A stretch of 58,493 nt of DNA from a virus (taxonomy: Duplodnaviria > Caudoviricetes). The notes under the pieces are model-generated. The model saw nothing but the letters and a program-made list of their open reading frames with translations, did not search any database and had not been told where the DNA came from. This document shows, piece after piece, positions 8,810-58,291 of the stretch. The position numbers and the translations under genes are program-made. The DNA lies in the IMG/VR virus record IMGVR_UViG_3300043449_000801, positions 1 through 58,493 of that record. One strand, given 5' to 3'. Positions within the stretch are counted from its first letter, which is position 1. Every line of letters begins with the position of its first letter.

Positions 8810-9011
8810 TATATCTTTGTTAAAAACAACTGTGCATCAAGAATTACTCATCTATGTTAATTCTGTCATGAATGAATTCTATGACCTAGGAGCTAGGCTC
8901 TACGAGGGAATGGTAGACAAGGATGAGGAAGAAGTTGAAGAGTCAATCAGACAACTTAAGAAGATGCTTACAGACGTACAAAGATCATATTCCCATGAGT
9001 CCGAAAAGTAA
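8745..9011 (+). CDS. Hypothetical helical protein (true start probably downstream)
   Basis: ORF fills the gap between neighbours. Confidence 0.45.
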   Translation: MRLLCCLEIGSLKICMTLWKNSISLLKTTVHQELLIYVNSVMNEFYDLGARLYEGMVDKDEEEVEESIRQLKKMLTDVQRSYSHESEK

Positions 9012-10002: not shown

Positions 10003-10019
10003 TGAGTGTGAAAGAAAGA

Positions 10020-13000: not shown

Positions 13001-16000
13001 TGTAATCAATGTTGTTTTGCTTAGAGAATAATACTTGTAGAGACTTTATATTATCTGTTGTTATTTCTTTTCCTCCAAGTAAAGACGCTAGTGATCCATC
13101 AACAAATTGATTTAATGACAATTTTTGGAACTCTTCTGGAGACAAATTCTCAAATGCTTTGAACTTAGATTTAACATAATTGAATACGGCATTCAACCAA
13201 TTCTTAAATTTTGATTTTGTTCCGGCTTCAATTAAAAGTTCTCCACGACTTGCAATCAAATCGGCCATTGCTTCTTCTCTTGCTAATTCGTTATCTCCAA
13301 GCTCTTTAATTTTTTGCTTGAGTATAGATGTTCCTTCCAAGAGATCAAATCCCTTTTGTAATAATCCTGGATTATTTGCTCTTAAGAAGTTCATCCATAT
13401 GTGAGAGAACTCGTGTATGGCTGTATTAGAATTAGCCTTCTCAGGATTCAAGAATATTTTTCCATCAGTTGTAAATCCATATACTACTTCTCCATCCTTT
13501 ACAAATTGTTTTACATTAGGATCTTGTAAAGCAGCATCAAAATCTTCTTGAGTATCTACTATAGTAACTGTAGGAAAAGCTAACTTAAGCTTGGCTATTA
13601 ATTTTTGTAGTTCAGTCATCTTGTCAGATAACTTAGCTCCTACAAACGCTTTAGTTGTAGCTATAGCTCCAGAAACAGCGATTGATTGACTTATTGCTGA
13701 ACTTACACTAGGTAACTCACCACTTGTATTAGGTTTAAGCATAGCAAATGTTTTGCTATACATTTCAGGAAATACATCGGCAGCATGAACAGGATTCTCA
13801 AGAATACCTATTAGCTGTCCTTTCATACCAAAAGGATAATTACCATGAACCAATTCTCCTTTAGCAGCAGATGTAACACCTCCATTCAATACATCTATAC
13901 CCACGATAGCAATAACATGGTTAGGTGGAATTTTACTACTTGCTTCTTCTTGAATTATATTATTCAATGTTTGAAGGTGTATGTATTTATAGAATTCACT
14001 TCCTTTATTTCCAACTAATGCTAAACCAGCTTTACTTCTAGGTTCTCCAGGTTTTGTTTCTTTATCTAATTCAATTCCACCTGTAAATAAGAAATCTGTA
14101 ACTATCAATCTTTTACCTATTGGTCTTAACTTAGACATGTTATCTAAAAGCTCATCAATAGTTTTAAAGTTGTTTTCTTTAATGAATTTTATAACTACAT
14201 TTTCTTGTATTTCCTTTTTATATATTTGATTTGCTTCTTTCTCACTTAATAATTTTTTGCCTTCTTTTTTTCTTTTATTATTTTTAGATTTTACAGGTTT
14301 AGAAGCGATATCATCTATTAAACCGTTTAAAGAATCTGTCCTTTCTTTTTTATTAAAATTGCTTTTAATAGTATCAGATGCTAATCTAAATAGTGCCTCA
14401 TTTGTTTTTATTGATGCTTGACCCATTTTAACAACAGCCATAGGAATATGACCATTTGGAAGTTTTCCTTCAGCCCAAAGCCTATCAAATAAAGACTTGT
14501 TTTTATTATATATTTCTAATGCTCTTTTATATGTGTCCTTACTTGATTTTAAATCAGTATTTGCCCATGCATTATTTTCATTACCATCTGTCAGATTAAA
14601 TCCAAGCCCACCATTTATATCAATAGTATTTCCTGTGAATGGATTACTAACAGAACCAGATGAAAGCTGATCAGATATAGTGAATATAAAAGGAATACCA
14701 TTGTATTCAGAAATATTTTTTATTACACCTTTATTCCAAGCTGCCTTAAGTTTATTGCCAAATCTAGATATCAATGATTTGATATTGATTTTGTTTTTGG
14801 TAGTTAAATTAGATGGAACATCAAACTCAGCAAATTCTTCAGGAAGCTGATTCATTTCATCTGTTACTTCTTCTACATCTCCTGCATCTATTGCATTCTG
14901 TGGCTCCTGTTTTTCCTTCTTAAACTTAGGCGGAGTCTTACCAAGTAATGCATCAAGTTTAGCAACATCTGCATCAATATCCTCCTTAGTCCTAGGCTTT
15001 TCTTCCGTAGTTACTTCTTCTTCTGGAGCAACCTCTTCTTCTGCAACTACTTCAGCCTCTACAGGTTGGGCTGCTGCTGTGGGTTCAGCTGTAGGTTGTT
15101 CTCCTGCTGGTTCAACTGCTGCTGCTGTTGGTTGGGTTGCTGTTGGTTCAACTGTTGGTTGAGCTTGTACAGGTACTTCAACTGCTGCCGTTTCGACAGG
15201 AGCTGTAACTTCTGGAAGTTGGATAGACTCTGTTGCTGCTTGGAATTCTTCATCTTGTTCTAATAAATCGTTTATAAATTGCTGTTGTTCAGGCGTCTGT
15301 ATCTTTTGCAATTCAATTTGATATGCAATATCTACAGCATCCTGTCCGGTAAACATTTGAGTTTGTCCTGCATCATTTTTCAATGACACATTCATTACTT
15401 CTCCTGCCGGATTATATTCAATACCTTGAGTAGGTAGTTCCATCTGCATGTTCCAATTGTTTCCGTCAATTGAAACTTGACCTTGTGGAGTTACAGAAAC
15501 TCTTTCTTCTTGTACCTCAAGACCTGGAAGTTCAGAGTTCATCACCTCATCTACATTTCCAAGCTCGTATATCTTTCCAGAATCTCTGTCTTCAAATACT
15601 ACTTGCTGCCCTTCAACATAAACATCACCTGATAATGGAGCATCTAATTTAGCTCCTCCAAATGAAGTTAATGTAGCAGGTCTATTTATTACTTCAGAAA
15701 CAACTACTCTAGGTGTTTCTGTTGCTACTACTTCTTCCTCCCTGATGTCTTGCCCACCTTCTTGGGTAGTGACTTGAGGTTCTGCTTGGGGTACTCCTTG
15801 CGCCATTTCTCCGCTAACTTCGGCTTTTGGCTGAACAGGTACTTCACTTGTTGTTTGCTCTTGAACGGCATTTTCTGAAATTTTTATAAGTTCAACATTA
15901 ATTTCTGCAATCCTTCTCCTTTGAGGTGTGGCAAGACTTTCATCTTTATTCGCTATATATTTCTCTAAGTTAGCTTTTTCTGTCATTAAATCAAGTGCTA

Positions 16001-18986
16001 CAGACTTATCTTCTACACTCATATTATCAGGCATAGAATTAATCCTTCCTTGAATATCTTTAAATGAGTTAGAAATTTCTTTAGCTTGCTCCTTAGTATA
16101 CTTGCCACTAATTATACCTGCCTTAAGATTAGCCAATAGAGCTTGATCAATATTCTCCATCTTGGCGGCATTCATTAATACCTCAAGTTGTTCCTTATTT
16201 AAATTCTCTCTAAACTTATTTCCTGTTATTGTACTAGCAGTTGTAACCGTACTCATGATACCACCACCTAATGCACCTAGGTATCCTTCATACAATACAT
16301 CTGCATATATTTCTTTTGCGCTCTTATTGTTAAAGTAATCAGAGCCAACCATTCCGTCATATACCTCCTGTATTCCAATCTTTGATACAGCTTGAGTCAT
16401 CTCAGTTAATCCCTCACCTGCGCCTCCAATCAAGGCATCCATAGGTAAAGTGGCAAACATTTTCTTTGTGCTATTGACAATAGCTGCTTGAATAAATTCC
16501 TTTGATGCATTCTCAGGAATATCCATAAAGGCATCCTTAATAACAGCATGAGTTATTTGTCTTCCAAGACCTGTTTTTTGTAGTGCTAAGTCTAAACCAA
16601 ATTTTTCAAGTATTGAACTTACAATACCATATGTTCCAGCCATTAATACCTTAGATGTTTCTGATGGTCCAGCACCACTAGGATCTTTAATCATATCAAG
16701 CTCATCCTTCATCTCATTGTATGACTGAGCAAAGAATGATGCATATGTAGCAGGCCCTCCACCCATAGCAAGACCTGTAGTTAATGCTCCAAGTGATTCA
16801 CCTAAACTAAATATTGCCTTAGTAACATCGCTTCTATTTTTAGAGTTCATATACTCCTCTGTAGTATAATCTCCAGTAATAAAATTAATGATACTTTCTT
16901 GTTCTTTTTTAGTTAACATTCCTAATCTAGGTAATGCTGTTAATCCTTTAATATATTTTTTAGAAATACCACCAATGAAAGTACCTCTTGCTTCATTAAC
17001 AATATATTCAGCTGCAATTGATTCGTCTATTGATTTAGTAATAGTTCCTAGATATTTAGTCTCATCTTTTAAATCAACCCCCATTTGTTTTATTTCACCT
17101 TGGAGTTGTTCCATTTTAGGCTTATACTGTTCGTTGAACTCCTCTTCACTTATCTTTCCTGATCTGATTCGCTCATTTGCATCATCAGCATAAATCTGAA
17201 GAAGCTTCATTTTTGCATTATAATTTTGAAATGACTTATTTATATCATCTGCAAACTTACTTGCGTTACCTATTGTCTCTTTGTCATTAGGAAGATATGC
17301 AACCATATTTTCCACCTCTTTATCATCGTATGGATTCTTTCCGGTTTCAATTGCTTTCTTCTGCTTGTAGTATATATCACGAAGAACTAAATAAGATTCT
17401 CTAGCATATTCTTTACGAGCTAGTCTTTCTTTCTCTTCTAATTTAAACTTATCTTCTTTTGTAACATTAATAATTTTATCTAAAACCATTGGTTGTTGAT
17501 CTGGAAGTCTATCATCTATATATTCAGGATCGCTATATATAGCTCTTCGATACTTATAGTTAGGACCAACCCAAGCACTATTTTCTTTTTCAGCTATTTC
17601 AAGTGACTTAGATGCATCAGCTAAATCTTTACTAGAATTTACTTTAATAAATTGACGCAGTCTTCTTGCCTCTTCGCTATCTCCTGCATCTGTCCAGTTA
17701 TCAAGACTGATTTTAATTGTATTCTTCCCATCTGGTGAAACCACTTCTATAGCATCACCAAACATGTCAGATATGGTATCATAAGTTCTTCCAAAAGAAA
17801 ACGTAGGGAACTTAGCTTTAAGTTTCTTAATTACTACATCTTCTTCATTGCCTATAAGTGATGAATTAACTGATAACAAGTTTGTGTCAAACTCTTTCTT
17901 TTTAATTAACTCTACATCCTCAGCAACACCTGAAAACTTGTCTCGTGCAGCATCGTATTTTATCTGCTTATTGAATTGAGCATTCAATGCATCAATTGAA
18001 CCCTTTGAAGTAATCCTAAAGAAATCACTGTATCCTTTAGGACGCTTTTCCCAATAAGGTTCGTTTGTTGCTTTATCTACACCTATTCTATACTCAACGT
18101 CATCCTTTCCTGGATATCCTACATATGTTTGTTCAATCGTACTAGATGATGCATTCTGATTAAACATTTTGTTTAATGTAGCTACCCTCTTAGGATCCTT
18201 TACCTGTTTGTAATCAAATACGTATCCTGTCTTTCCTGTCTTTTCATTTTTATATGTAAGTGGCTTTCCGTTTTGATATTGAATTACACTTTCATTCCAA
18301 ACAGGTATGCCTGATTCAGTATAAACTAATTCATATTCTTTATCTGTTTTACCAGGTATAGTATATTTCTTAGGAGCTTCATACTTTTCTGCCTTTGGTT
18401 TTGTTTCTCCTGCAAGAACTTTACCTGCGCCTACTACAGCTTCAGTTATTTCTTTATTTATTTTTTGAGATACGCCTTCAGGAACAGTTGATTTTACAGT
18501 TGTAAATTCCTTAGTCTTAACAGGAGTGTATGTCTTGGCATATTTCTCTAGTGCAGAAATTCTACTTTTTTCGTTTATCTTAACGTAATTTCCTGTTTCA
18601 CCTAAATCAATATACCACTGATTATTTGTCTTCTTGTATACTGCATCTTCCCTTCCTGGATACCGATATGATCCACTAGGTTTAACAATAGACTCAACAG
18701 CCTTTTGTACTCCTGCACTAACTGCCTTCGACAACGCACCCGAAGAAGAAGGTTTTGCTGCCCCACTTCCAGGAGATGCCGTAGTGACTTTTTTTTTTGG
18801 TGGTTGAATGAATGCTGAACTAAAAGTATTAAAGTCAGTTGTTTGAAATATCTTAGCTTGTCTTCCTAAGTTATATAACTTCTTTATCTGATCTCCACTA
18901 GCTGATTTAAATGTGTTAAAGTCTGTGCTTTGTATTAAGCCAGATTGAACATACAAATCATACAGTTTCTTTAGTTTATCATTCAT
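10020..18986 (-). CDS. Giant (2988 aa) internal virion/ejection polyvalent protein with a zincin-like HExxH domain and LPD38-like C-terminus
   Basis: Last gene of the late operon after two ejection-like genes; IHEFSH...EEAMA; C-terminal VDFSQGG..PYLNASTQG. Confidence 0.7.
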   Translation of the reverse strand: MNDKLKKLYDLYVQSGLIQSTDFNTFKSASGDQIKKLYNLGRQAKIFQTTDFNTFSSAFIQPPKKKVTTASPGSGAAKPSSSGALSKAVSAGVQKAVESIVKPSGSYRYPGREDAVYKKTNNQWYIDLGETGNYVKINEKSRISALEKYAKTYTPVKTKEFTTVKSTVPEGVSQKINKEITEAVVGAGKVLAGETKPKAEKYEAPKKYTIPGKTDKEYELVYTESGIPVWNESVIQYQNGKPLTYKNEKTGKTGYVFDYKQVKDPKRVATLNKMFNQNASSSTIEQTYVGYPGKDDVEYRIGVDKATNEPYWEKRPKGYSDFFRITSKGSIDALNAQFNKQIKYDAARDKFSGVAEDVELIKKKEFDTNLLSVNSSLIGNEEDVVIKKLKAKFPTFSFGRTYDTISDMFGDAIEVVSPDGKNTIKISLDNWTDAGDSEEARRLRQFIKVNSSKDLADASKSLEIAEKENSAWVGPNYKYRRAIYSDPEYIDDRLPDQQPMVLDKIINVTKEDKFKLEEKERLARKEYARESYLVLRDIYYKQKKAIETGKNPYDDKEVENMVAYLPNDKETIGNASKFADDINKSFQNYNAKMKLLQIYADDANERIRSGKISEEEFNEQYKPKMEQLQGEIKQMGVDLKDETKYLGTITKSIDESIAAEYIVNEARGTFIGGISKKYIKGLTALPRLGMLTKKEQESIINFITGDYTTEEYMNSKNRSDVTKAIFSLGESLGALTTGLAMGGGPATYASFFAQSYNEMKDELDMIKDPSGAGPSETSKVLMAGTYGIVSSILEKFGLDLALQKTGLGRQITHAVIKDAFMDIPENASKEFIQAAIVNSTKKMFATLPMDALIGGAGEGLTEMTQAVSKIGIQEVYDGMVGSDYFNNKSAKEIYADVLYEGYLGALGGGIMSTVTTASTITGNKFRENLNKEQLEVLMNAAKMENIDQALLANLKAGIISGKYTKEQAKEISNSFKDIQGRINSMPDNMSVEDKSVALDLMTEKANLEKYIANKDESLATPQRRRIAEINVELIKISENAVQEQTTSEVPVQPKAEVSGEMAQGVPQAEPQVTTQEGGQDIREEEVVATETPRVVVSEVINRPATLTSFGGAKLDAPLSGDVYVEGQQVVFEDRDSGKIYELGNVDEVMNSELPGLEVQEERVSVTPQGQVSIDGNNWNMQMELPTQGIEYNPAGEVMNVSLKNDAGQTQMFTGQDAVDIAYQIELQKIQTPEQQQFINDLLEQDEEFQAATESIQLPEVTAPVETAAVEVPVQAQPTVEPTATQPTAAAVEPAGEQPTAEPTAAAQPVEAEVVAEEEVAPEEEVTTEEKPRTKEDIDADVAKLDALLGKTPPKFKKEKQEPQNAIDAGDVEEVTDEMNQLPEEFAEFDVPSNLTTKNKINIKSLISRFGNKLKAAWNKGVIKNISEYNGIPFIFTISDQLSSGSVSNPFTGNTIDINGGLGFNLTDGNENNAWANTDLKSSKDTYKRALEIYNKNKSLFDRLWAEGKLPNGHIPMAVVKMGQASIKTNEALFRLASDTIKSNFNKKERTDSLNGLIDDIASKPVKSKNNKRKKEGKKLLSEKEANQIYKKEIQENVVIKFIKENNFKTIDELLDNMSKLRPIGKRLIVTDFLFTGGIELDKETKPGEPRSKAGLALVGNKGSEFYKYIHLQTLNNIIQEEASSKIPPNHVIAIVGIDVLNGGVTSAAKGELVHGNYPFGMKGQLIGILENPVHAADVFPEMYSKTFAMLKPNTSGELPSVSSAISQSIAVSGAIATTKAFVGAKLSDKMTELQKLIAKLKLAFPTVTIVDTQEDFDAALQDPNVKQFVKDGEVVYGFTTDGKIFLNPEKANSNTAIHEFSHIWMNFLRANNPGLLQKGFDLLEGTSILKQKIKELGDNELAREEAMADLIASRGELLIEAGTKSKFKNWLNAVFNYVKSKFKAFENLSPEEFQKLSLNQFVDGSLASLLGGKEITTDNIKSLQVLFSKQNNIDYIVATARANDIKDDAIEVYLRNNGFSDADIIQAMTQMKPAKDITVEEIYKQSQDALKRRYDANIFVRAYRYANKAIFDRQEGIKRLMKGIKNDAAKRAFNMLITKAGATGFASYRFKRIDRVVYGGLDSKSLEILNQIIYARRIIDINVNRRNEGKPPYTGINGYNEANAMADLNRIRESIGENNFDNLNKRAKRYFLEFNDNLRILFESGRINEETYLRFKDREYSPIKVIKYIIGDNANPGNADSQASTLGVSRKDIQALSDKNENDIIMDSRWLLMMNIHTVAARAFENDMLVAWAEAIETATQEEKDAISKYIKENPIVKTTKDGRPVQKYELGDFSGPNQKAELVGFTPITYFVNGQQRIMVVDSMYANQILDIKNVELNNKMRKVGQFTGVGILRYMATVGNPLFIIGNVPVDIFNATFLTNVYSWFKPLAIVQATTGFSMKFIRGIYDDIRSIMNEEYENKLYREYVEHGGAIDFLSQDGIVGIKSMLSAGSIKSYVAKPFLAVGACMSYLGTKSEFAMRIAVYSKQKNNLIAKYKKENNGQEPTGQALDDIMWDAAREARELVDFSQGGSTIKAIDPVMPYLNASTQGVRKSLKFAKENPIAFGVSMSQVALATGGMAYYSLAVALSAIDGDDEEEKMRKLKDALDSVPAHTKAGYHVVFTGKKDKDGNLQYAKIKKLPVVSILTTIIEQYAYKMFFEMGGSDYNVDTGLMYETFKKSMPIWPTELAGKNPGVAAYIALSYNIDTFTGKEIFKQPRDKKIKEEYQGVYDNKIEEFYKVIAPAFKMSPAKTKVAIEKIITSPSTNPMVHIAYAAMNGMFGATGFVEDIKACGNLMIESAGNKLVKYTDPDILSFVRQDKMKDMETSIESEIWMKEQSIYNKINKVYDSGKEMSYGELTDIITDNFEGQDVEKYVRKYDTYIRNRNLNKGMLDIVYETVPEVQAYKLYMEFGPKMSGDEMAYLQEIMGLSGEKVSDKAFQIYYSKYGK

Positions 18987-25741: not shown

Positions 25742-28700
25742 TTAATTATTAATTTTTGGTGGAGGGTCGTGATTGACTACTACATTCAAAACAATAGGCT
25801 TAGAACGCCCTTGAATTAAAGTAAAGTAAACCATTTTATCACAATATGAAACTCTGAATATTATAGACCTAACAGCACCTGAATTATTTACCGCTACGTC
25901 TGCAAATATATCTGATGATTGGTATCCTGATGTTTGAAATCCTGTAACCCAGTTAGTTCCAAATCCATTATCAACTAATGCTAGTGACCAATTGACATCT
26001 GTGATGATTGTGAAGAGATTAATATTATTTCCACCAAATTTACCAACAGACCATTGGTTTCTGCTTAATGCAAGAGTGCATCCTAGAATTGTTATACTAT
26101 TGTTTGATAAAGTATACAATTGATTGTTAGGATCGTATGCGCCAAGTTTTTGTGTATTTGGATAATCTCTCAACAAGTCAATAAAATAATCCTTCATTCC
26201 TGTATCAGATATTTCTACTACTTGATTATCTGATAGCGCAAGTACTACACCTCTTCTAGCATCCGTAAAGAATGACTCAGATCCCCATGTAGCAAACGAC
26301 TCAGGATTCTTACTTATTCCGTACTCATGAGGGAACATTACTTGATTGCCTAATACTTGTGGAATAGAAGCAATAGATCCACCTCCTGAAGCGTCTGATA
26401 GGATATTCTTTTCATAAAGAACCACACTTATTTTATCCTCTTGAAGAACAAGGATATCAGACTCTCTAGCATAAAGCTTTTGAATGGACCCATATTCACC
26501 ATCTAAGTACTTGAAGTTAGCTGTAGATAGATTGAACTCGTTTAACCTATTTACTCCTGTATTCTCTCCCAATATGCTACTATAACAAATAGCATTCTTG
26601 CTTACTTTTCTTCCGTAGCTATCAACAATTGCTGATGTTCTAGGGCTATACTCCAAAGTAAATCCATTCCAGTCATCCCTTATCCTATTTGTTTCAAGAC
26701 CATTAGCGTAAGCCCATGCATTGAAGTCAGAGTTAACCGTAGCTCTAGGATTATTAAGAACTACCTTTGCTCCTAATAAAGATGTTTGATTTTGCTCAAA
26801 TGCATCATATCCTGCTGTACCGGCATACGGAGTTGTGTATGCAGGCATTATATAGTCAACAATTACATTGTATGGGTCTGGAGTACTTATTATCTCATAG
26901 TATCCATTCGGTAAGTTTGGATTACTTGACTTTACATATATGCTCTCACCAACAACATACTTATGCATTTGATCAGTAGTAGGTGTTGAACCAGGTACTA
27001 ACTGACCTAAGTTCGTTTTACCAACTAATGTTGATGGACCAGATGGGACTATTGTAGCATCAGCGAATGACCATAGAACAGTATGTAGATTGTTTCGTAT
27101 AGGAAATGTTCTGCTTAGTTCATGGTATATGTTCAAGTCATCCTCTTCTGGAACTGTCTCTGCAATCAATGAATTGTCAAAACGTTTCACTGTAATAGAT
27201 GCCGACATTCTGTTAAAACCTTCTCCTTGTGAAGTATATGGAATAATACTACCCCTAATCAACATGTACATTGGATTAGTAACTATGTTCGAATAATTTC
27301 CGAATATAGGACCAGTATTTATTGTTGTATATACTACATCTATAAAGTTATTTAATTGTTGTCCTTGATAAAAAGTACTAACATTTACATTTTGTGATAA
27401 AGTATTAAAGTTAGATCCCCTCCTAAATGATACAGCTGTTTTATTTAATTGTACTCCTGCTGCATCTGTGTATGAAAAGTTCAAATAAGTTCCAGATTCA
27501 ACAAACCATTCTTCAATGTTTTCATATGTTCCATTGCTGTAAAATGTTTGTATATAATCTGATGCACTTGGATTTAATAATTCATTTATTTTTATTTCAA
27601 TAATGTCACCAGGAAATATTTCAGTGTCATTATATATACTAACCGCCAATGGACATATTGGCGCACCACTTTGATGTGGTTGATTTGGAACAAAATAATT
27701 ATAATTTATATTCCCTCTTAAATTTATTTTCCAAACATCACCTATTGATGGTTGTTGATTCCATACAATCCAAACACCTAATGAATTATTTTGACTAAAT
27801 ACAGTTCCAGCAGAAGTAACATTAATCCAATATGGAGTATTTATTGAAATATTACTTGTTGTCCATGAACCACTTAAATCAACTGCTGTTGTCCATCTAA
27901 ACTGAGTATTGCTTATTACTTGTACTGTAACTCTATAGCTACTATTTGCATTATACTTATTTGGAGATATAGTTGGATTTGTTGGTGGTGATGAAAGTGC
28001 TAATGCTGTTGGATTTGATTCCCCATAATATATAGGATTTTCAGCATATTTTATAGTTTGATTTCCTACAGATGTAAATTGTGTTGTTGGTGTATATGAA
28101 GCTCCATAAGATTCTGTATAGTAAGTAGTTAATCCTAATGTGTTGTTTAATTCGTATGCAGAATCAACTTTTATCTTAAAGTAAAGTCCTGCTTGCGCTC
28201 CATTGATAAAGTTTGTAGGTTGAGATTTTAATTCTAATACCTTATACTTTTTATTTACAAATGTTGGCCCTGTAGCAGTACACTTAAAAATAATATACCC
28301 TCCCACAGGAATTTTATCTTTATCAGATTCATGTATTAAGAAATACCTAAACTGATCTTTAAGATAAAAGTATATAGGGAATATATTATAATAACTTCCC
28401 TTTCCTTGCTTGATAACTAACCTATAGTTAGTTGCCCACTGAGGAGGTCTATTTGCTATGTTTACGGTTAAACTATTCCCCTTGTTTGACTGAGTAGGAG
28501 GTATGTATACAGTACTCGCATTATTTAGATTGTCAGGAGCTAATACAGTAGTTGTTCTTCCGTAGTCATCTAGGTATTGGATACCTATTTGGTAATCTCT
28601 GTCAGATCTAAATGTTTGTATTGGCGCACCTTCATCAAGTATGTCAAAAGACTTGTACTTGACAGATAATACAATCTTCTCAAACACATCATAAAACTGA

Positions 28701-29752
28701 GTGTAGTTACCATACATTATTCTATTACCAACATAATCCTGTGCCTTAGCTAACAATGGAACATTGTCAAAAAGCCTAGTTAGTTGCTCAGGAGATAAAA
28801 CAGTATATGTTTTATCATTACTGAACTTGTATTCGGTATATATGTTGTCAGATATGTTTGAGTTTTGTTTATTTATAGTGTCAACTACAAAGGTATTTAA
28901 GCTACGAGCATCACGCATGATTATCTGTATCTCCTTCACAAACTCATTACCTGTAAACATAGTAATGTATGCAAGGTTATACCTATTGAGCATGGCCTTA
29001 TTAAACCCTGCATTGTAGTCAACCAAGTAATCTTTTGCTTGAAATGCTACAGCAGAGAATGGAGATAACGAACTATATTGATTATCAACATACTTATACC
29101 TATAAGAAAAGTATAAGAACCTATCCTCCATGTTGTTTGCTTGGTCAACCAAGTTAGGATCTTCTGTATTCTCAAAGCGTAGCTTTGGAGCATTCAATGG
29201 AGGAGCCATAATAACATTAATGTCTTGGTCAATGCGTGGATCATCAACTGCATACCCACCATTACCATTAACATCTGCTTTTACTCTTGATATGTTTATC
29301 TTTCTTGGTGGATTATAGTTATCAGTCCAATAAAGAAAACCATTTACATAGTTGATTCCAGTAACAATAAACTCCCTATTGAAATTAAGCTTACTAATAC
29401 TTGAAGGAGTAGCTTTGTTAGACTGTAATACCCTAACTATGTTTCCAGATATTTCATTGTATTCGTAAATACCATCAAATTCATCAGCAGTAACAAGCCA
29501 ATAGATAAGATTATCCTTCTCACTTGCTACAGCACCGATAGTCCTAGCGTTTGTTAAATTCCTATTAGTGACATTCGCAAGGTTACCAATTAAGATGTTA
29601 CCCTTCTGATTTTTTACAGCACCAATATTTCCTGAGTCAGCACTATCAACACTTACGTTTTCAGCATGTCTATATACTCCTTCAGGTATAAGCCTCTCAT
29701 CGAGGTCTTTATTCATGATACCTGTTACAAATGTATTTTTTACTTCAGGCAT
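25742..29752 (-). CDS. Tail nozzle/stabilization protein (P22 gp10 / crAss-like)
   Basis: N-terminal F..GIMNKDLDERL..G.YR.A.NV; LYWTDNYNPPRKIN; C-terminal GSIQKL, YGISKNPESFA, FFTD.RRG. Confidence 0.75.
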   Translation of the reverse strand: MPEVKNTFVTGIMNKDLDERLIPEGVYRHAENVSVDSADSGNIGAVKNQKGNILIGNLANVTNRNLTNARTIGAVASEKDNLIYWLVTADEFDGIYEYNEISGNIVRVLQSNKATPSSISKLNFNREFIVTGINYVNGFLYWTDNYNPPRKINISRVKADVNGNGGYAVDDPRIDQDINVIMAPPLNAPKLRFENTEDPNLVDQANNMEDRFLYFSYRYKYVDNQYSSLSPFSAVAFQAKDYLVDYNAGFNKAMLNRYNLAYITMFTGNEFVKEIQIIMRDARSLNTFVVDTINKQNSNISDNIYTEYKFSNDKTYTVLSPEQLTRLFDNVPLLAKAQDYVGNRIMYGNYTQFYDVFEKIVLSVKYKSFDILDEGAPIQTFRSDRDYQIGIQYLDDYGRTTTVLAPDNLNNASTVYIPPTQSNKGNSLTVNIANRPPQWATNYRLVIKQGKGSYYNIFPIYFYLKDQFRYFLIHESDKDKIPVGGYIIFKCTATGPTFVNKKYKVLELKSQPTNFINGAQAGLYFKIKVDSAYELNNTLGLTTYYTESYGASYTPTTQFTSVGNQTIKYAENPIYYGESNPTALALSSPPTNPTISPNKYNANSSYRVTVQVISNTQFRWTTAVDLSGSWTTSNISINTPYWINVTSAGTVFSQNNSLGVWIVWNQQPSIGDVWKINLRGNINYNYFVPNQPHQSGAPICPLAVSIYNDTEIFPGDIIEIKINELLNPSASDYIQTFYSNGTYENIEEWFVESGTYLNFSYTDAAGVQLNKTAVSFRRGSNFNTLSQNVNVSTFYQGQQLNNFIDVVYTTINTGPIFGNYSNIVTNPMYMLIRGSIIPYTSQGEGFNRMSASITVKRFDNSLIAETVPEEDDLNIYHELSRTFPIRNNLHTVLWSFADATIVPSGPSTLVGKTNLGQLVPGSTPTTDQMHKYVVGESIYVKSSNPNLPNGYYEIISTPDPYNVIVDYIMPAYTTPYAGTAGYDAFEQNQTSLLGAKVVLNNPRATVNSDFNAWAYANGLETNRIRDDWNGFTLEYSPRTSAIVDSYGRKVSKNAICYSSILGENTGVNRLNEFNLSTANFKYLDGEYGSIQKLYARESDILVLQEDKISVVLYEKNILSDASGGGSIASIPQVLGNQVMFPHEYGISKNPESFATWGSESFFTDARRGVVLALSDNQVVEISDTGMKDYFIDLLRDYPNTQKLGAYDPNNQLYTLSNNSITILGCTLALSRNQWSVGKFGGNNINLFTIITDVNWSLALVDNGFGTNWVTGFQTSGYQSSDIFADVAVNNSGAVRSIIFRVSYCDKMVYFTLIQGRSKPIVLNVVVNHDPPPKINN

Positions 29753-47901: not shown

Positions 47902-48115
47902 ATTCACCACTCCTGTAGTCGTGTCCCTGTACCGCATCGTATACGATCCTATCACCCTTCTTAATGCTTCCGTTGTGTTCGCTAGATACCACAACGATAC
48001 CCTCTTGGTATCGCTGCTTAGTAACCTCCTTCCCACTGAGCAATAGTCCGCTGCTGCTTTCCTGAACCTCAACCTTACAAGGCTCAACCAACAAAAAGTT
48101 ATTTAACGCTATCAT
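47855..48115 (-). CDS. groES: Co-chaperonin GroES
   Basis: ALNNFLLVEP, SSSGLLL, GIVV, IKKGDRIVY; adjacent to groEL. Confidence 0.82.
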   Translation of the reverse strand: MIALNNFLLVEPCKVEVQESSSGLLLSGKEVTKQRYQEGIVVVSSEHNGSIKKGDRIVYDAVQGHDYRSGESMYRMIQYRDVALVL

Positions 48116-49688
48116 TCTCTCTTACATTAGTTATTATCGCATTGGTGCTTAGTATCGTCACAGCGACACTCACAGCGTTCATCAGCGCACTCTTAGTGAC
48201 CTTACACGGATCAATAACACCCATCTTCATCATGTTACCATACGTGCCATTCTTAACGTCATAACCAAACCAAAAGTTCTCTGCAATAACATCAGTGAAC
48301 ACGTTGTCCCATCCAAGGCCTGCGTTCGCGCAGATCTTCTTAAATGGCGCATACACCGCATTCAACAGAATGTTCTTCGCCTCAACCTGATCACTGCTGT
48401 ACGACTTTGTTGGAAGGGAGTCATCGATGTCATACATCGCACGAATCAACGCCATACCGGACCCAGGCAATACACCCTCCTCCTTGGCAGCCTTTACAGC
48501 CAACACCGCGTCATCGATCCTATCCCTCAACTCCTTCTGTTCAATGTCGCTCTGCGCTCCAACGTAAATAACACCTATGCCACCGTATATGTTGGCAATC
48601 CTTTCGTTTATGAACTGCACATCAGCCTCAGTTGTCTCCTGCTCTATGCTATCCTTAAGCTGTGCAATGTATCCCTTCAACTCAGGACTCTCTTCCGCAG
48701 GAACAATAACAGTGTTATCCTGACCAACGATTATTCTCTTCGCCTTACCAAGCCCCTCCATCGAACACAACGCTAAGTTGTCACCAGTAGACTCACTATA
48801 GTAATGCGCCCCAAGAGCTACTGCGATGTCGCGCATCATGTCATCCTTCCTATATCCGAAGTTAGGAGGCATAATGTGGCAGCAACGTATCTTGTTCTTC
48901 ACTACGTTCATGCTTAATGTCGCAAGAACCTGTGGAGATAAGTTACCGATGATCAACAACGGCTTATTGTCTCTCACTATTGGTGCGAGTATCGCCTCAA
49001 TATTAGCCAAGTTACTTATCTCAGCATCTGTCACCAATACATACGCGTCCTCTAGAACACACTCGTTCTTCTTATGGTCCGTAACAAAGTACTTCGATGT
49101 CCATCCTCGCTGAACCCTGATACCTGAGATCACTTCACTGTATGTCTTCGTAGTCTTACTGTTCTCAACAACAACGTACTCCACGTTGCTGTAAACATCA
49201 GATATTAACTTCCCAATCACAGGGTCGTTGTTCGAAGAGATAGTTGCCACATCGAGCAACACCTTCCCATTAACTCTCTTAGACTTCTTGTCAAGTACCT
49301 TACATACCTTATCAGCGATAGCCTGGATGTTACGCAGCACCTCAGTCTTGTTAGCCCATTCACCCATAGACTCAAACGAATCAATAATGGCCTTAGTCAA
49401 CACGATGCTCGTAGTTGTTCCATCACCTGCCATCGTGGCTGTCTTCGATGCTGCCTCTCTTACAAGCTGCACCGCTAGGTTCTCCACCGGATCGTACAAG
49501 TTAATCGACTTGGCTACAGTCACTCCATCCTTCGTTACAGTCACACCACCAACGTGGTTCTCTGACTCTACTAATACCGTCTGTCCGCAAGGACCTAGCG
49601 TGGATGACACCGCAGCTTCAATGATCGAGATGCCGGACTTAAGCTTATTACGCCCGTTCTCGTCTAATAATACCTGTTTAACTATCAT
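48099..49688 (-). CDS. groEL: Chaperonin GroEL
   Basis: TLGP.G, TKDGVTVAK, AGDGTTT, ERIA, EEGVLPG.G, GVIDP.KV. Confidence 0.95.
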   Translation of the reverse strand: MIVKQVLLDENGRNKLKSGISIIEAAVSSTLGPCGQTVLVESENHVGGVTVTKDGVTVAKSINLYDPVENLAVQLVREAASKTATMAGDGTTTSIVLTKAIIDSFESMGEWANKTEVLRNIQAIADKVCKVLDKKSKRVNGKVLLDVATISSNNDPVIGKLISDVYSNVEYVVVENSKTTKTYSEVISGIRVQRGWTSKYFVTDHKKNECVLEDAYVLVTDAEISNLANIEAILAPIVRDNKPLLIIGNLSPQVLATLSMNVVKNKIRCCHIMPPNFGYRKDDMMRDIAVALGAHYYSESTGDNLALCSMEGLGKAKRIIVGQDNTVIVPAEESPELKGYIAQLKDSIEQETTEADVQFINERIANIYGGIGVIYVGAQSDIEQKELRDRIDDAVLAVKAAKEEGVLPGSGMALIRAMYDIDDSLPTKSYSSDQVEAKNILLNAVYAPFKKICANAGLGWDNVFTDVIAENFWFGYDVKNGTYGNMMKMGVIDPCKVTKSALMNAVSVAVTILSTNAIITNVRENDSVK

Positions 49689-51393: not shown

Positions 51394-51494
51394 ATCTATT
51401 AATTTTTAGTTACAGACCTATAACGGGGCGTAAGCCCATATGTAACAACACCAATTAAAAAAAATGTTGGGAAATGACGGTCTGTGACGGTCCA

Positions 51495-51780
51495 GTGCTG
51501 ACTTTGTGCTGACATTTTTTGGGTTAAATGCCTACTAATGAGGGCGTTAGCCTTTTTTGTGTCAAGATTACGGCTCTGACGCGATTTTTTTTTTTTTATT
51601 TTTCTATTTTCTCTATTTTCTTATATATATATTATTTTTTTTTTTTTTCGTAATATAGTAACATCTTAACACTAAATAGAGCTAACTAACTGATAATCAA
51701 CAAATTAACCCTTTTTCAACTAAGCATTTAGGCAGCACTAAATGGCAAATCTTAACACTTTTCGACCAATCTTGACACTA
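51495..51780. repeat. Origin-like iteron/AT-rich element, copy A
   Basis: GTGYYRA repeats facing inverted TCTTRACACT repeats around a poly-T/TATATATA core; inverted homolog at 55271-55560. Confidence 0.7.
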
Positions 51781-52493
51781 TCACATATGCTGGGGGAGTG
51801 GGTAATAAATACAATTCACGAGCTTTGCTCGTGGCGGAAACCGACCTAAATCAGCATGGGGGGTATGTATTTCCATAACTTTCTCCAAACTTTTTGGCGT
51901 TTTTATCTAGGTAGGTACATGCATACATAGGTAGGTCTATCATTCGTCGTGGATGCACCCCCTATAGTTGTGTTATCCTACTGGTAGTCAGGCACTTATA
52001 TTTCTATTTAACATAATAGTAGTTATAGGACATCGAGACATAACTAACTGACAATCAATTGACTATAAGAATGAACATCCCTGGACGCGTCTATATTTAC
52101 GTAGCTTTCCAATAATCGCACATGAATTCACGTGCATTATTCGTATCGATACGCATCGATTCGTATCACATTTGATTGCGTTTTGTTCGGTCCGGTTTTG
52201 CGTTTAGGAGCGCACATCTTCGGACGTTCAAAAATCACCCAACCAAATCCGAACAAAGAAACGAATCTGCGCTTTATTGAATCCCGCGCACGTAAGGAGA
52301 TGCATAACTAACTGAATATCAATAGCTTGGATGAATGTTAGTCAGATGTGGATATCTGTCGGCATAAAAAAATGTTAAAATCAAAAAAAAATTTCATCCA
52401 TAACTCTCTATTTATCAGTCAGTTAGATGTAACTACAAAAAAAAGATTAAAAAATATTGCACAAAGAATGTTACTAATTCAAAAGAAAGTAGT

Positions 52494-52548
52494 TATATTT
52501 ACAGAAGTGATTCAAACGAGACATCACAACGACACAAGATCTTTGACA
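52494..52548 (+). promoter_or_regulatory. Early promoter (-7 TATATTTA) followed by a small hairpin and boxA-like GATCTTTGACA (52538-52548)
   Basis: One mismatch to TAnnTTTG; boxA-like sequence resembles rrn leader antiterminators. Confidence 0.55.
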
Positions 52549-52752
52549 TATGTAAGTATATATCAGCAAGCGGTGCGGATGTTATATACTTTACACATTG
52601 GGTGCAACATCTAGTTCGGGATGTTGATAACACTGACTTAGTAGAACGGCATATGGGATTTTATCCGCGATATGCACAACATGGTGTAGTTAGAGTGACT
52701 AATTAATGGTAGCGATAACCACTACACCACTAACCAAATAAAACAAGTAATC

Positions 52753-52917
52753 ATGGAGTATGCATTGTTTAAAGGATTCAACAAAGTAGGTATCTTTCCT
52801 AACTACGAATCAGCAAAGAAAGCTATCAATGGAGATGGTATTTATAATATTTGCGCCATTAAAGCCATTAACGGAAAGCTAACAATATTATCAAGGGAAG
52901 CAATAAGAATAGGTTAA
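52753..52917 (+). CDS. 54 aa early protein (absent from ORF track)
   Basis: MEYALFKGFNKVGIFPNYESAKKAINGDGIYNICAIKAINGKLTILSREAIRIG; TAACCAAA-type leader; stop lies inside hammerhead stem I. Confidence 0.7.
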   Translation: MEYALFKGFNKVGIFPNYESAKKAINGDGIYNICAIKAINGKLTILSREAIRIG

Positions 52918-52967
52918 CTGATGAGTCTTTAGTAGACGAAATGCCGTAGCAATACGGCATCTTAACC
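52912..52967 (+). ncRNA. Hammerhead ribozyme, type I (copy 1), predicted AUC cleavage after 52961
   Basis: GGTTAA CTGATGA GTCT-ttagt-AGAC GAAA TGCCGTA-gcaa-TACGGCA TC TTAACC. Confidence 0.93.
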
Positions 52968-52983
52968 AAATAAATCAAGTAAC

Positions 52984-53106
52984 ATGAGAGCAATCAATTT
53001 AACAGTGAACATCCTATTTGTAGGAATGGTAGTAGTAGCAATCGCATTCGCGATGTACAAAGTAATCAGTGGTGCGCCAATCGGCAGCTATACTGCAATG
53101 GGATAA
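52984..53106 (+). CDS. 40 aa single-TM early protein (absent from ORF track)
   Basis: MRAINLTVNILFVGMVVVAIAFAMYKVISGAPIGSYTAMG. Confidence 0.7.
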   Translation: MRAINLTVNILFVGMVVVAIAFAMYKVISGAPIGSYTAMG

Positions 53107-53139
53107 ACAGAGTATTAATAACCAAAAAAAATCAATCAC

Positions 53140-53247
53140 ATGAGCGCAAGAATTTTAAAGATAGAAGGCCGTTACGAAGTTATCGGTTTCTTTCAAAATG
53201 ACGTACTAATTAGGACTACCAAAAGGTTAGTTACTAACTGGAAATAG
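53140..53247 (+). CDS. 35 aa early protein (absent from ORF track)
   Basis: MSARILKIEGRYEVIGFFQNDVLIRTTKRLVTNWK; TAACCAAAAAAA leader; stop overlaps hammerhead 2. Confidence 0.6.
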   Translation: MSARILKIEGRYEVIGFFQNDVLIRTTKRLVTNWK

Positions 53248-53303
53248 GTTAACTGATGAGAATTTAGTATTCGAAACGGCATTCACGAGATGCCGTCTTA
53301 ACC
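53247..53303 (+). ncRNA. Hammerhead ribozyme, type I (copy 2), predicted GUC cleavage after 53297
   Basis: GGTTAA CTGATGA GAAT-ttagt-ATTC GAAA CGGCAT-tcacgag-ATGCCG TC TTAACC. Confidence 0.93.
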
Positions 53304-53319
53304 AAAAAAATCAATTATT

Positions 53320-53658
53320 ATGGAAAGGAAAGAAATTATTGCAGCAATTGAGAACATGTGCAGCGAAGATTTATTCATGCTTAACAACATTTTTTGTGAT
53401 GTAATGAGCTGCTACGATGACCAAATATTTGGTAACGATGAGGAGTTTTTTAACATGTTTTTTGAGGGGAAACCAATGGAAGCCGCAAGGGCTGCCGTGT
53501 TTGGTGATTACAATTTTCATCACGAATATGTAAAGTTCAACGGATACGGAAATTTGGAAAGCTTTGATTTTATTGGTATTGAAAATCTACCTGACAGTTT
53601 GGATAGAATTGTAGATGCAATTGAAGAAAGCTTTAATGCATTTGAGGATTTATTTTAA
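53320..53658 (+). CDS. Acidic early protein
   Basis: 112 aa, D/E-rich, FGDYN...KFNGYGNLESF. Confidence 0.8.
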   Translation: MERKEIIAAIENMCSEDLFMLNNIFCDVMSCYDDQIFGNDEEFFNMFFEGKPMEAARAAVFGDYNFHHEYVKFNGYGNLESFDFIGIENLPDSLDRIVDAIEESFNAFEDLF

Positions 53659-53710
53659 TTAATTAATAGAGGGGCGCGCATTCTGTCAACGCGAAATTAA
53701 ATTAAGGGTT

Positions 53711-53863
53711 ATGAAAAAGTTAATTCAAATTTTAATGCTCGTATGCATGTTCTTATTGACGTTAAGTTTATTGGACAATCCGAATACAGACCTATGCCTA
53801 TTGGGGATGGGTTATGTATTGACAATGGGAATATTATTGGTATCAATCACAGAAAAAAAGTAA
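53711..53863 (+). CDS. 50 aa two-TM membrane protein (absent from ORF track)
   Basis: MKKLIQILMLVCMFLLTLSLLDNPNTDLCLLGMGYVLTMGILLVSITEKK. Confidence 0.65.
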   Translation: MKKLIQILMLVCMFLLTLSLLDNPNTDLCLLGMGYVLTMGILLVSITEKK

Positions 53864-53866
53864 GTT

Positions 53867-53998
53867 ATGTTAACACGAATTTCATTAGTAGGATTGGCCA
53901 TGTACATTCCGATAGGATTGTATCTAGGCATCGTTGAAGAGACAAGGCTAGCGATGACGATAGCTGTATTATTAATCATTAAAGCATTAAGGAAATGA
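53867..53998 (+). CDS. 43 aa two-TM membrane protein (absent from ORF track)
   Basis: MLTRISLVGLAMYIPIGLYLGIVEETRLAMTIAVLLIIKALRK; ATGA overlap with the next gene. Confidence 0.65.
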   Translation: MLTRISLVGLAMYIPIGLYLGIVEETRLAMTIAVLLIIKALRK

Positions 53999-54549
53999 AA
54001 GCACAAACTTTTTTACCGCTGTTCAGCGGATTCTACGGGTCACATTGGGATAGTGTTGATTTTTATGGGGAGGAGGAATACTTCTCCCTTCCAGATGGGG
54101 ATGAATTTTGGGAGTACGTTGATTGGGACAAATACCATAACCACATCGCAAAGGAAATGTGTTATGAGGTATGTATGATGCTGAGTGAATTCGTAACTGA
54201 TATTGAATTCGAATCCATATCAAGCCCTAAGTACTACAATTTTGAGAACGATAGCATCAATTGCACTATCGAATTTAACGAGGGAAAAGTGAATGACTAC
54301 ATACGTTCAAAGGGTCACGCATTTTCTGAATACATCCGCAAAAAATATACTAGCCGTGATGGATTCATATCGTTCTATTCAAACGATGCAAACGAATGGA
54401 TTGATTCATGGACGGAAGATCCGCACATGGTTGGGGCTGTTCTTCAATTCATTTGTGAAGAGGAGGGATTTGAAGAGCCTTTTGATTTGAATGATTGTCA
54501 CATCGGATTGTTTTACAAAGATGAAATTTACCAACACCAAATAGTATGA
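53995..54549 (+). CDS. Acidic/aromatic early protein
   Basis: FSGFYGS, SPKYYNFENDSI, YTSRDGFISFYSN. Confidence 0.8.
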   Translation: MKAQTFLPLFSGFYGSHWDSVDFYGEEEYFSLPDGDEFWEYVDWDKYHNHIAKEMCYEVCMMLSEFVTDIEFESISSPKYYNFENDSINCTIEFNEGKVNDYIRSKGHAFSEYIRKKYTSRDGFISFYSNDANEWIDSWTEDPHMVGAVLQFICEEEGFEEPFDLNDCHIGLFYKDEIYQHQIV

Positions 54550-55272: not shown

Positions 55273-55560
55273 TGTTAAGAATGCTGTAAAAGTGTCAAGA
55301 TTCAGTGTTTAGTGTTGACTAAGTGCTTAGTTGAAAACAGCTGAATCCTTTACTGTATCTATCTTTCCTTTATTTTAGTGTTAAGATGTTAGTATTATTA
55401 TAAAAAAAAAAAATAAGTATATATATAAGAGAGAATAAGAGAGGAAAAAAATAAAAAAATTTCGTGATGCTGTCGTCATGTCAGCACTAATAAAATTAAG
55501 TAGTTCATAATCAATTGTTTAACCAATGTTACTTGCAACACAACGTTAGCACAACGTAGC
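55271..55560. repeat. Origin-like iteron/AT-rich element, copy B (inverted relative to copy A)
   Basis: AGTGTYRA at 55271, 55291, 55311 and 55377; poly-A/TATATATA core; 18, 14 and 13 bp exact inverted matches to copy A. Confidence 0.7.
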
Positions 55561-56794: not shown

Positions 56795-57433
56795 ATGGCA
56801 TACATAGAGAGTAATTTTTTCCCCATTAAAGTATTCGTAAGGAACGAGTACATGTACCAAGGTACGAAGGGTCACGGTACTTTTTCGGAGGGTGTGGTGT
56901 TGTCTGTTAGATGCATGCCTGGACAGGCAGCCTTGTTTCAGGTGTTGTTGGACAATGGCGTGGTACGTGACAAGTTACCGAGTCATGCGTTGTTGACAGC
57001 TCCTAAGATACCATCTCCCGACTTGCCGTTCCACTACCTACAGATATGGAACTGCTTCAGTTATCGGTTCAGTGTGCATACGATTAACTATTTGTACGAC
57101 ACACCGGTATCTGTGTACATGAAGGATAGAGTATGGTACGAGGGAAGTTACTACGCTACTATTAATTGGGGCGCGAATGATTTGAACAGCGACTATACCT
57201 TAGCGGAGGATCCATTGGAGCATAAGTGTCACCATGTGATTCTTTTGGACAATGGGCAGATAGCACTACAGCCCAACAACAGGATAAGGTGGTCGGAGCC
57301 ATCGTTCGTTACGAAGCCTTTCCCAAGCAGACCGGACTACATGGTGAATAAGGACTACTACAACTGCGAAGGGTTTGATAAGTGGCATACGGAGGATAGC
57401 GATGTAATGTTTTACGAAATAGAGAAGATATGA
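56795..57433 (+). CDS. Conserved hypothetical phage protein
   Basis: LQIWNCFSY, EHKCHHVILLDNGQIALQPNNRI. Confidence 0.75.
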   Translation: MAYIESNFFPIKVFVRNEYMYQGTKGHGTFSEGVVLSVRCMPGQAALFQVLLDNGVVRDKLPSHALLTAPKIPSPDLPFHYLQIWNCFSYRFSVHTINYLYDTPVSVYMKDRVWYEGSYYATINWGANDLNSDYTLAEDPLEHKCHHVILLDNGQIALQPNNRIRWSEPSFVTKPFPSRPDYMVNKDYYNCEGFDKWHTEDSDVMFYEIEKI

Positions 57434-57678
57434 ACACACCAATGCAGATGTTGATTGCCTATCTGGAGGCATCGATAGTGATTAATGACGATGGTCATTC
57501 GGACCGTAACGAGACGTACAGTAGGGTTATAGCCATTGCGAAGATATACGCAGAGCATGAGTTGTATCTGTTGCGTACTTTTTTTGAGGCAGGGCATAAC
57601 CATGCGGTAGGAAAGAAGATAGGTGCTGTAGATAAGTTCCCTGAGTTTGATGAATATATTAAGAGGTATGAAGAATAA
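57430..57678 (+). CDS. Hypothetical protein
   Basis: ORF coupled to its neighbours. Confidence 0.55.
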   Translation: MNTPMQMLIAYLEASIVINDDGHSDRNETYSRVIAIAKIYAEHELYLLRTFFEAGHNHAVGKKIGAVDKFPEFDEYIKRYEE

Positions 57679-58291
57679 AGTAGAGTTATTAGGTTGGTAT
57701 GGGTCTGACTTAGTGCATGCCCAATCGGCATGGACGAGTACTAGTAGAGACCTAACGGAGGAGAAGTTAGGAAGGGTTGATAAGCTGTTGACGATGTTGG
57801 CGAGCGAAGGACACCACACACCATTTGAGAAGTCTTCACTACACTTCTTGGTGACTTGCGATCAGGCATCACACATCCACTTGCTGAAGCACAGAATAGG
57901 CGTGAGTGTGAACGGAGAGAGCGCACGTTACAAGGAACTGACGGAAGACAAGTCATACATTCCGGAGGATTGGTATGGTACAAGTTGGGGATCGATGTTA
58001 TCGATTTACACACACAAGATGAACGGATTGTATCACGCGTGTTTGGAGGACCTTACACCTAAGCTAGGAAGAAAGAGAGCAAAGGAGAGTGCGCGGTTCT
58101 TTAAGATGATGAACAGTCAGATTACGTTGGATGTGATGTTTAACTGGAGGTCTTTCTACCACTTCTTGAAGCTGAGGGATAGTGAGCATGCCCAGGTTGA
58201 GATTAGGCAGATAGCACAGGAGATGTTGCGGTTGGTGAAGGATATTGAAGGAAATCCATTTGAAGAAACAATTAAAGCGTTTAAATTATGA
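57668..58291 (+). CDS. thyX: FAD-dependent thymidylate synthase ThyX
   Basis: GHHTPFE, KHRIGVSVNGESARY, KESARF, NWRS..HF..LR..HAQ.EIR. Confidence 0.9.
   Translation: MKNKVELLGWYGSDLVHAQSAWTSTSRDLTEEKLGRVDKLLTMLASEGHHTPFEKSSLHFLVTCDQASHIHLLKHRIGVSVNGESARYKELTEDKSYIPEDWYGTSWGSMLSIYTHKMNGLYHACLEDLTPKLGRKRAKESARFFKMMNSQITLDVMFNWRSFYHFLKLRDSEHAQVEIRQIAQEMLRLVKDIEGNPFEETIKAFKL

Follow-up and report, generated by a model that had tools for sequence, protein, structure and literature searches.

Two type I hammerhead ribozymes, probably active, between small genes of an uncultured Bacteroidota-type phage

Introduction

The closest described counterparts of the locus considered here are the prophage hammerhead ribozymes reported in 2011 by Perreault et al. 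(PMC3088659), which cluster, flanking one gene or a short gene block, and which cleave in vitro and in Escherichia coli. The locus itself comprises two hammerhead motifs, HH1 and HH2, in the IMG/VR virus record IMGVR_UViG_3300043449_000801 (58,493 bp, estimated to be 96% complete), the whole of which is called the window below. According to the accessible text of PMC3088659, processing of long phage transcripts was proposed as the role of the prophage hammerheads, and no circular or spliced products were detected; the same text describes HHphage, a halovirus hammerhead variant lying 13 nucleotides (nt) before a start codon and near a mapped 5' end. In the part available of a 2019 review (PMC6765202) the role of such hammerheads was still called open. 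In 2026 type I hammerheads were described just before open reading frames (ORFs) in RNA viruses that infect fungi and plants, and for one of them, cutting 7 nt before the start codon, the accessible passages report confirmation of the processed end by rapid amplification of cDNA ends (PMC13725137).

As far as the available text of these papers goes, the locus in the window resembles the clusters of Perreault et al. in that neighbouring hammerheads, in the sense of transcription, lie between phage genes of changing identity; HH1 and HH2 are clustered in the sense of at least two nearby hammerheads oriented like their flanking genes. It differs from those clusters in four respects: the ribozymes form a sharply delimited subfamily (a 6-bp stem I capped by A/G-C/A, a 4-bp stem II, and a UNANU loop), the hosts of the phages largely lack Shine-Dalgarno sequences, arrays reach eight copies in 3 kb, and stem I together with the leader is usually uniform within a genome. 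The subfamily may already be present among the alignments of PMC3088659. The hammerheads of PMC13725137 are likewise of type I, have a long helix III and fill a short spacer, but they belong to eukaryotic RNA viruses, where cap-independent translation was proposed, whereas the present ones lie in the operon of a DNA phage with a bacterial host. The Rfam families RF03152 and RF00163 share with HH1 and HH2 the catalytic core and the type I topology.

Functional parallels are offered by phage T7, with its RNase III processing sites between the early genes, and by RiboJ, a synthetic ribozyme insulator, both of which turn a polycistronic message into pieces with defined, context-independent 5' leaders. 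Unlike processing in T7, the predicted cutting at HH1 and HH2 needs no host enzyme, and it would leave 5'-OH and 2',3'-cyclic phosphate ends. The likeness to both is functional only, and nothing suggests common descent.

HH1 and HH2 are probably active cis-cleaving type I hammerheads that fill two spacers of a single rightward polycistronic transcript, probably an early one, in a phage of the Bacteroidota type. Intergenic hammerheads of phages were described as early as 2011, and for this window the assignment is a correct but ordinary annotation; the additions are modest and consist of the family signature, a blind spot of Rfam, arrays of considerable length, and a stem I and leader that stay uniform within genomes. 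No paper on the subfamily signature or on hammerhead arrays of Bacteroidota phages was found in a search that left most subscription journals outside.

The two ribozymes

The elements of HH1 and HH2 are as follows (model R2 is the covariance model described in the next section).

52912..52967, + strand: HH1, type I hammerhead, recognized by direct sequence reading, fold and model R2
52912-52917 with 52962-52967, + strand: HH1 stem I, GGUUAA with UUAACC
52918-52924 and 52938-52940, + strand: HH1 core, CUGAUGA and GAA
52925-52937, + strand: HH1 stem II and its loop, GUCU-UUAGU-AGAC
52941-52960, + strand: HH1 stem III, AUGCCGUA-GCAA-UACGGCAU, GCAA being the loop
52961, + strand: HH1 C17, predicted cut 52961/52962, triplet AUC
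53247..53303, + strand: HH2, type I hammerhead, recognized by direct sequence reading and model R2
53247-53252 with 53298-53303, + strand: HH2 stem I, GGUUAA with UUAACC
53253-53259 and 53273-53275, + strand: HH2 core, CUGAUGA and GAA
53260-53272, + strand: HH2 stem II and its loop, GAAU-UUAGU-AUUC
53276-53296, + strand: HH2 stem III, ACGGCAU-UCACGAG-AUGCCGU
53297, + strand: HH2 C17, predicted cut 53297/53298, triplet GUC

On the + strand the two motifs are 335 nt apart, each flanked by ORFs of the same strand. Both contain CUGAUGA, GAAA and U-C, and every core position by which hammerheads are recognized in the Methods of PMC3088659 is present in each of them (C3 U4 G5 A6 N7 G8 A9, G12 A13 A14, the A15.1-U16.1 pair, and an H17 that is not G). 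The pairs next to the core, 1.1-2.1, 10.1-11.1 and 15.1-16.1, are U-A, G-C and A-U in both. Stem I is open and stems II and III are closed by loops, which is the type I topology; stem I has 6 bp and stem II 4 bp in both copies, and stem III has 8 bp in HH1 and 7-8 bp in HH2. In isolation the minimum-energy fold of HH1 is the hammerhead fold, at -17.1 kcal/mol.

A preliminary description of this DNA, made from its letters, had claimed two complete type I cores with identical stem I and loop II, compensated stems II and III, and the NUH triplets AUC and GUC before the predicted cuts, and the sequence bears it out throughout. Between HH1 and HH2 stem I and loop II are the same, two stem II pairs are compensated, and the inner pairs of stem III are flipped. 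The predicted cuts, after 52961 and after 53297, indeed lie 22 nt ahead of the ATG codons at 52984 and 53320, and the 3' strand of stem I forms the first six nucleotides of the leader in both copies, as that description had also stated.

Support from covariance models

The hammerhead core pattern alone has two matches in the window against 0.41 expected, and two or more were found in 9 of 100 shuffled sequences, so that the pattern by itself is not significant. The whole motif, unlike the core pattern, is. Model R2 rests on 19 sequences, all from contigs other than the window, one of the 19 (row L004) being a near copy of HH2 from a different record; its scores are 78.2 bits for HH2 (E 3.1e-19) and 75.1 bits for HH1 (E 2.4e-18). 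With filters off, no further R2 hit at E<=1 occurs on either strand of the 58,493 bases, and the window therefore contains exactly two hammerheads of the family. The presence of additional hammerheads was also rejected with model R1, whose next best hit in the window after HH1 and HH2 reaches 12.8 bits (E=1).

The family in IMG/VR

A first search pattern, in which the core, the ends of stem II and loop II were fixed, gave 37 matches in 36 IMG/VR loci, which together with the two copies in the window make 39 occurrences. Stem I, stem III, U16.1 and H17 lay outside this pattern, and 38 of the 39 nevertheless have all six stem I pairs, at least three stem III pairs, U16.1 and an H17 other than G, locus L038 being the single failure. 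Among 21 distinct sequences 98.5% of the cells are paired and 12 of the 16 pairs change on both sides; these values were reached in none of 500 shuffles, and sliding the partner strand by 1-3 columns leaves 26-45% paired. A looser pattern matched at least 127 stretches, of which 80 loci were used; among the matches listed, 84 of 87 are complete hammerheads (77 distinct sequences), two of the three failures lying at locus edges and only L119 failing outright. As judged from these alignments, HH1 and HH2 belong to a large covarying type I subfamily represented in IMG/VR, and the compensatory changes in all three stems together with the invariant core indicate selection on the ribozyme fold.

The signature of the family is narrow. 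Stem I is exactly 6 bp long in 76 of 77 members, its first base is G in 74 of 76, and it is preceded by A in 75 of 76 and followed by A in 76 of 76. At H17, 66 members have C and 11 have A. The U, A and U letters of loop II were fixed by the search pattern, and the 13 model hits that the pattern had missed therefore serve as the unconstrained test, in which the loop is U-N-A-N-U in 12. Natural hammerheads need a contact between stem I and loop II at cellular Mg2+ concentrations, and the A/G-C/A cap, the constant 6-bp stem I and the UNANU loop are candidates for the elements forming it.

The placement of the family members is equally regular: each small gene has one ribozyme, which encloses the upstream stop, and leaders measure about 20-26 nt. 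In 28 of 28 members (those left of the 38 complete ones after repeats were dropped) the stop codon of an upstream ORF of at least 30 codons starts between -15 and +7 relative to the first nucleotide of the ribozyme, and the leader to the next ATG measures 19-35 nt. ORFs were called mechanically in this set as well as in the set of 77, in which the 72 members with a downstream ORF have a median leader of 24.5 nt (interquartile range about 22-31) and 26 of these 72 leaders contain a Shine-Dalgarno-like 4-mer.

The number of copies varies. Five other records carry 3, 1, 4, 1 and 8 copies and four more carry 2, 2, 3 and 2, all of these records having been reached via hammerhead loci and so holding at least one copy by construction. 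The longest array, in record G005 (8200-11096, loci L043 and L045), has eight hammerheads within 3 kb, where genes and ribozymes are roughly equal in number and consecutive ribozymes are separated by one or two small ORFs; all eight have the stem I GGUUAA/UUAACC and the leader UUAACCAAAAA. It is also worth mentioning that two family hammerheads, 83 nt apart, are found at 3203824-3204079 (the first at 3203824-3203904, the second at 3203987-3204079) of the chromosome of Paraflavitalea speifideaquila BL16E (loci L187 and L189, record G010), the complete genome of a cultured Bacteroidota bacterium, and this two-copy locus makes mapping of the RNA ends feasible. With the features of the window and of the family in hand, the purpose of the intergenic hammerheads of phages, objects known since 2011, becomes easier to test.

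Leaders and mosaic structure

The ORFs and leaders around the two ribozymes are listed below.

52728-52752 (repeat 52728-52754), + strand: leader of the 54-aa ORF, no ribozyme
52753..52917, + strand: 54-aa ORF 5' of HH1, stop codon TAA 52915-52917, no Pfam or PHROG match
52962..52983, + strand: HH1 leader, 22 nt, UUAACCAAAUAAAUCAAGUAAC, A-rich and without a Shine-Dalgarno sequence, a copy of repeat D1
52984..53106, + strand: 40-aa ORF 3' of HH1, no family match
53116-53139 (repeat 53116-53142), + strand: leader of the 35-aa ORF, no ribozyme
53140..53247, + strand: 35-aa ORF 5' of HH2, stop codon TAG 53245-53247
53298..53319, + strand: HH2 leader, 22 nt, UUAACCAAAAAAAUCAAUUAUU
53320..53658, + strand: 112-aa ORF 3' of HH2, phrog_4534, function unknown

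The overlap of each ribozyme with the upstream stop codon, noted already in the preliminary description, is confirmed: the TAA of the 54-aa ORF sits in the 5' strand of HH1 stem I, and the last base of the TAG of the 35-aa ORF is the first nucleotide of HH2. Copies of a leader repeat, UAACCAAA(W)AAA(W)CAA, stand before consecutive genes at 52728, 52960, 53116 and 53296, and a hammerhead precedes only the copies at 52960 and 53296; a fifth copy, at 1986-2004, precedes the gene for the primase and follows a terminator-like hairpin (1962-1985) and a run of T. Since genes without a ribozyme carry copies of it, the leader exists independently of the ribozyme. The length of 22 nt falls within the family spread (median 24.5) and the HH1 and HH2 leaders are copies of one repeat, so the exact value carries weak weight. 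Remnants of hammerheads were sought at three other places: 53107-53139 has no structure, 52682-52729 has a hairpin no more stable than those of shuffled sequences (z -0.57), and 53938-53994 contains nothing hammerhead-like.

Within a record, pairs of ribozymes have an identical 3' strand of stem I in 25 of 32 cases, an identical stem II with its loop in 4 of 32 and an identical stem III in 1 of 32; among 748 pairs taken from different records, 151 agree in stem I. These counts include near-duplicate records, some copies were missed by the simple finder, and the pairs depend on one another. Read most simply, the leader is under a constraint of its own and stem I follows the leader. Stem I and leader stay alike throughout a genome in which stems II and III drift, and the leader recurs on ribozyme-less genes, which suggests selection on the processed 5' end as such in hosts without Shine-Dalgarno sequences.

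The surroundings of the ribozymes are rearranged among relatives. HH2 is 95.5% identical over 66 nt to the hammerhead of record G001, around which the genes differ or are rearranged with respect to the window, and the 35-aa ORF is 55% identical over 31 aa to a G001 ORF at a different relative position. A DNA relative from run X2 joins position 52737 to 52972, so that a 234-nt block with the 54-aa gene and HH1 is absent, the breakpoints being located in the two type-A copies of the leader. The entire 52.7-55 kb region is mosaic among relatives, as further joints show. The promoter-stem-loop cassettes of T4-type phages offer a comparison for such recombination junctions.

Proposed processing and its alternatives

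From the motif, its covariation, its family and its placement we infer cleavage, its timing and its consequences as follows. Once the 3' strand of stem I has been transcribed, the ribozyme would fold and cut after C17 (52961, 53297). Of the two products, the upstream one would keep stems II and III as a structured 3' end with a terminal 2',3'-cyclic phosphate, and the downstream one would have its 5'-OH on UUAACC, 22 nt ahead of the AUG; since the stem I duplex left after the cut is calculated at about -4 kcal/mol, the products are expected to separate easily. Cutting would be constitutive and free of protein, the pieces of the operon would share one unstructured, A-rich leader without a Shine-Dalgarno sequence, and the stability and translation of adjacent small genes would become uncoupled, as is generally expected of RNA processing. 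Protein-independent processing of the messenger RNA (mRNA), as suggested in the preliminary description, remains the best reading because complete, covarying hammerheads are placed among small genes of one orientation without an intervening site resembling a promoter or terminator: none was found on the + strand of 52168-54084, and a scan for sigma-70-type promoters gave no + strand match near HH1 and HH2. The motif, the covariation and the placement fit that suggestion; its word "early" comes from gene order, from which it is a reasonable inference.

Several results weigh against active, generally needed ribozymes. The comparison with the Rfam hammerhead models by means of Infernal, put forward in the preliminary description as a check, did not go its way. 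At the gathering thresholds there are no Rfam hits in the whole window, and RF00163 (Hammerhead_1, gathering threshold 34 bits), searched directly, gives nothing at E<=10. RF03152 (RAGATH-1-hammerhead) aligns end to end with HH1 at 36.3 bits (E 2e-4 when 551 nt are searched, 0.022 for the whole window), below its gathering score of 56.3, and has no match to HH2. In isolation the hammerhead fold of HH2 is 2.3 kcal/mol above the minimum-energy fold, its stem II is weak (one G-C and three A-U pairs), and with flanks included a competing fold of HH1 is slightly better; for HH2, and for both copies with flanks, the hammerhead fold is 0.2-2.3 kcal/mol from the minimum. MW202828.1, the closest named relative by primase (48% amino acid identity over the whole protein), has no ribozyme of the family, so that these ribozymes are dispensable for phages of this kind. 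Finally, an RNA-library contig of a relative (run X24) crosses the equivalent of the HH2 cut and runs on for 255 letters, and uncleaved RNA or contaminating DNA is thus present at that position; X24, the one RNA library found, accounts for 0.07 of the sampled words and consists of contigs of relatives only, and contigs cannot show RNA ends or levels.

Membership of HH1 in RAGATH-1 was considered and rejected, the score being below the threshold and the upstream hairpin of RF03152 not being conserved: that hairpin is matched only by a 4-bp A-U stem within the ORF upstream of HH1, and in HH2 and the family nothing of it beyond a single A is conserved. RAGATH-1 is not mentioned in the main text of PMC5737381. 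A large family that Rfam leaves undetected means that routine annotation will miss such ribozymes.

The failure to reach the Rfam thresholds and the core pattern, reached twice or more in shuffled sequences at the rate given above, are also what could be said for chance matches or dead relics without activity. This explanation is hardly credible in view of E values of about 1e-18 under the leave-out model, of a core intact at every position, and of strong covariation with an architecture conserved across the family. A better though still unlikely case can be made for the ribozyme and leader being mainly a module boundary, a short homology at which recombination swaps cassettes of small early genes, with cleavage secondary or neutral; it is compatible with protein-free processing. 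The near identity of HH2 to the G001 copy amid differing genes, the precision with which the X2 relative skips the 54-aa gene and HH1 between two leader copies, a copy number of 0 to 8 across the records examined, and stem I shared within records far more often than stem II or stem III all point that way, the last with the reservation that the pair counts include near-duplicate records. The identical tracts are, however, short (about 18 and 11 nt), and covariation in all stems with an invariant core speaks for selection on the fold and not on mere sequence identity. The preliminary description had added that cleavage frees a sequestered initiation region and may be coupled to upstream termination, which amounts to a regulated switch: the uncut ribozyme would hide the next start, and a ribosome terminating at the overlapping stop would control folding, cleavage and downstream translation. 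In each of the 28 members the stop sits within or beside the ribozyme's 5' part, and the 3' strand of stem I does supply the first six leader nucleotides. Those six of 22 are the only leader bases paired, however, the A-rich remainder and the AUG being open in every predicted fold, and two genes bear the same leader without a ribozyme, so that the leader works alone. The 5' part of the ribozyme has stop codons in more than one frame (UAA/UAG in stem I, UGAUGA in the core), and the overlap can thus be explained by tight packing. On balance such a switch is improbable.

Circularization is more improbable still. Retrozymes and viroid-like satellites make RNA circles by cleavage and ligation, and if both cuts were made here, ligation by the ribozyme or by a host RtcB-type ligase would give a 336-nt circle (52962-53297) with the 40-aa and 35-aa ORFs, a circular phage mRNA made, if it exists, in the same way. 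The identical stem I helices would let the excised 5' end pair with its own 3' ribozyme body, and, as the hammerheads of a genome usually share stem I, ribozyme bodies and downstream leaders are interchangeable as pairing partners. The occurrence of the same leader on ribozyme-less genes is a simpler account of this uniformity. No back-joint was seen in X24, which is weak evidence since it comprises contigs of relatives only, and, in the text available, no circular or spliced products are reported for the systems of Perreault et al. (PMC3088659).

The phage and its probable host

The source of the window is most likely an uncultured freshwater phage of the Bacteroidota type. Its genes from 10 to 51.4 kb lie on the - strand and include those for a portal protein, a crAss-type muzzle domain (25742-29752) and a 2988-aa protein. 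After a 1.36-kb intergenic region the + strand block starts at 52.7 kb with small ORFs of no assigned function, HH1 and HH2 being inside its first 600 nt, and continues with genes for a DnaA-like helix-turn-helix protein, ThyX, a primase-helicase, a cytosine methylase and a helicase.

The host very probably belongs to the Bacteroidota, because Shine-Dalgarno-like sequences are rare (a 4-mer before 2 of 41 phage ORFs), the region before start codons is A-rich (46% A at -20..-1 against 29% genome-wide), 15 of the 19 records matched by the primase are phages of Flavobacterium, Nonlabens, Polaribacter, Cellulophaga, Bacteroides and Maribacter (the other four being uncultured), and four of the six bacterial contigs with the stem I and core of HH1 and HH2, the P. 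speifideaquila chromosome among the four, are titled Bacteroidota. The Bacteroidota -7 promoter motif TANNTTTG is not enriched in the phage (78 observed, 66 expected) and does not occur in 51400-52750. The intergenic region does contain three copies of the motif RCATAACTAACTGAnAATCAA (51678-51703, 52036-52061 and 52300-52325), with a weaker copy at 55497-55517, and the deepest contig of the RNA-library run X24 (depth 45.6) starts at 51703, straight after the first of them. The repeats may be phage promoters and a non-coding RNA may be encoded at about 51703-51950, for which Rfam gave no match.

Along some 120-130 nt the DNA of the 112-aa ORF downstream of HH2 is 70-74% identical to genes annotated as hypothetical in SPO1-like Bacillus phages, which is odd for a phage of the Bacteroidota type; an annotated terminal or repeat region covers the matching gene of phages Grass and P59. 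The phage also encodes several accessory proteins, among them a chaperonin of the Cpn60/GroEL family.

48099-49688, - strand: Cpn60/GroEL-family chaperonin
57647-58291, + strand: ThyX
56795-57433, + strand: match to phrog_3704, annotated 'ferredoxin'
10020-18986, - strand: 2988-aa protein, without a family match

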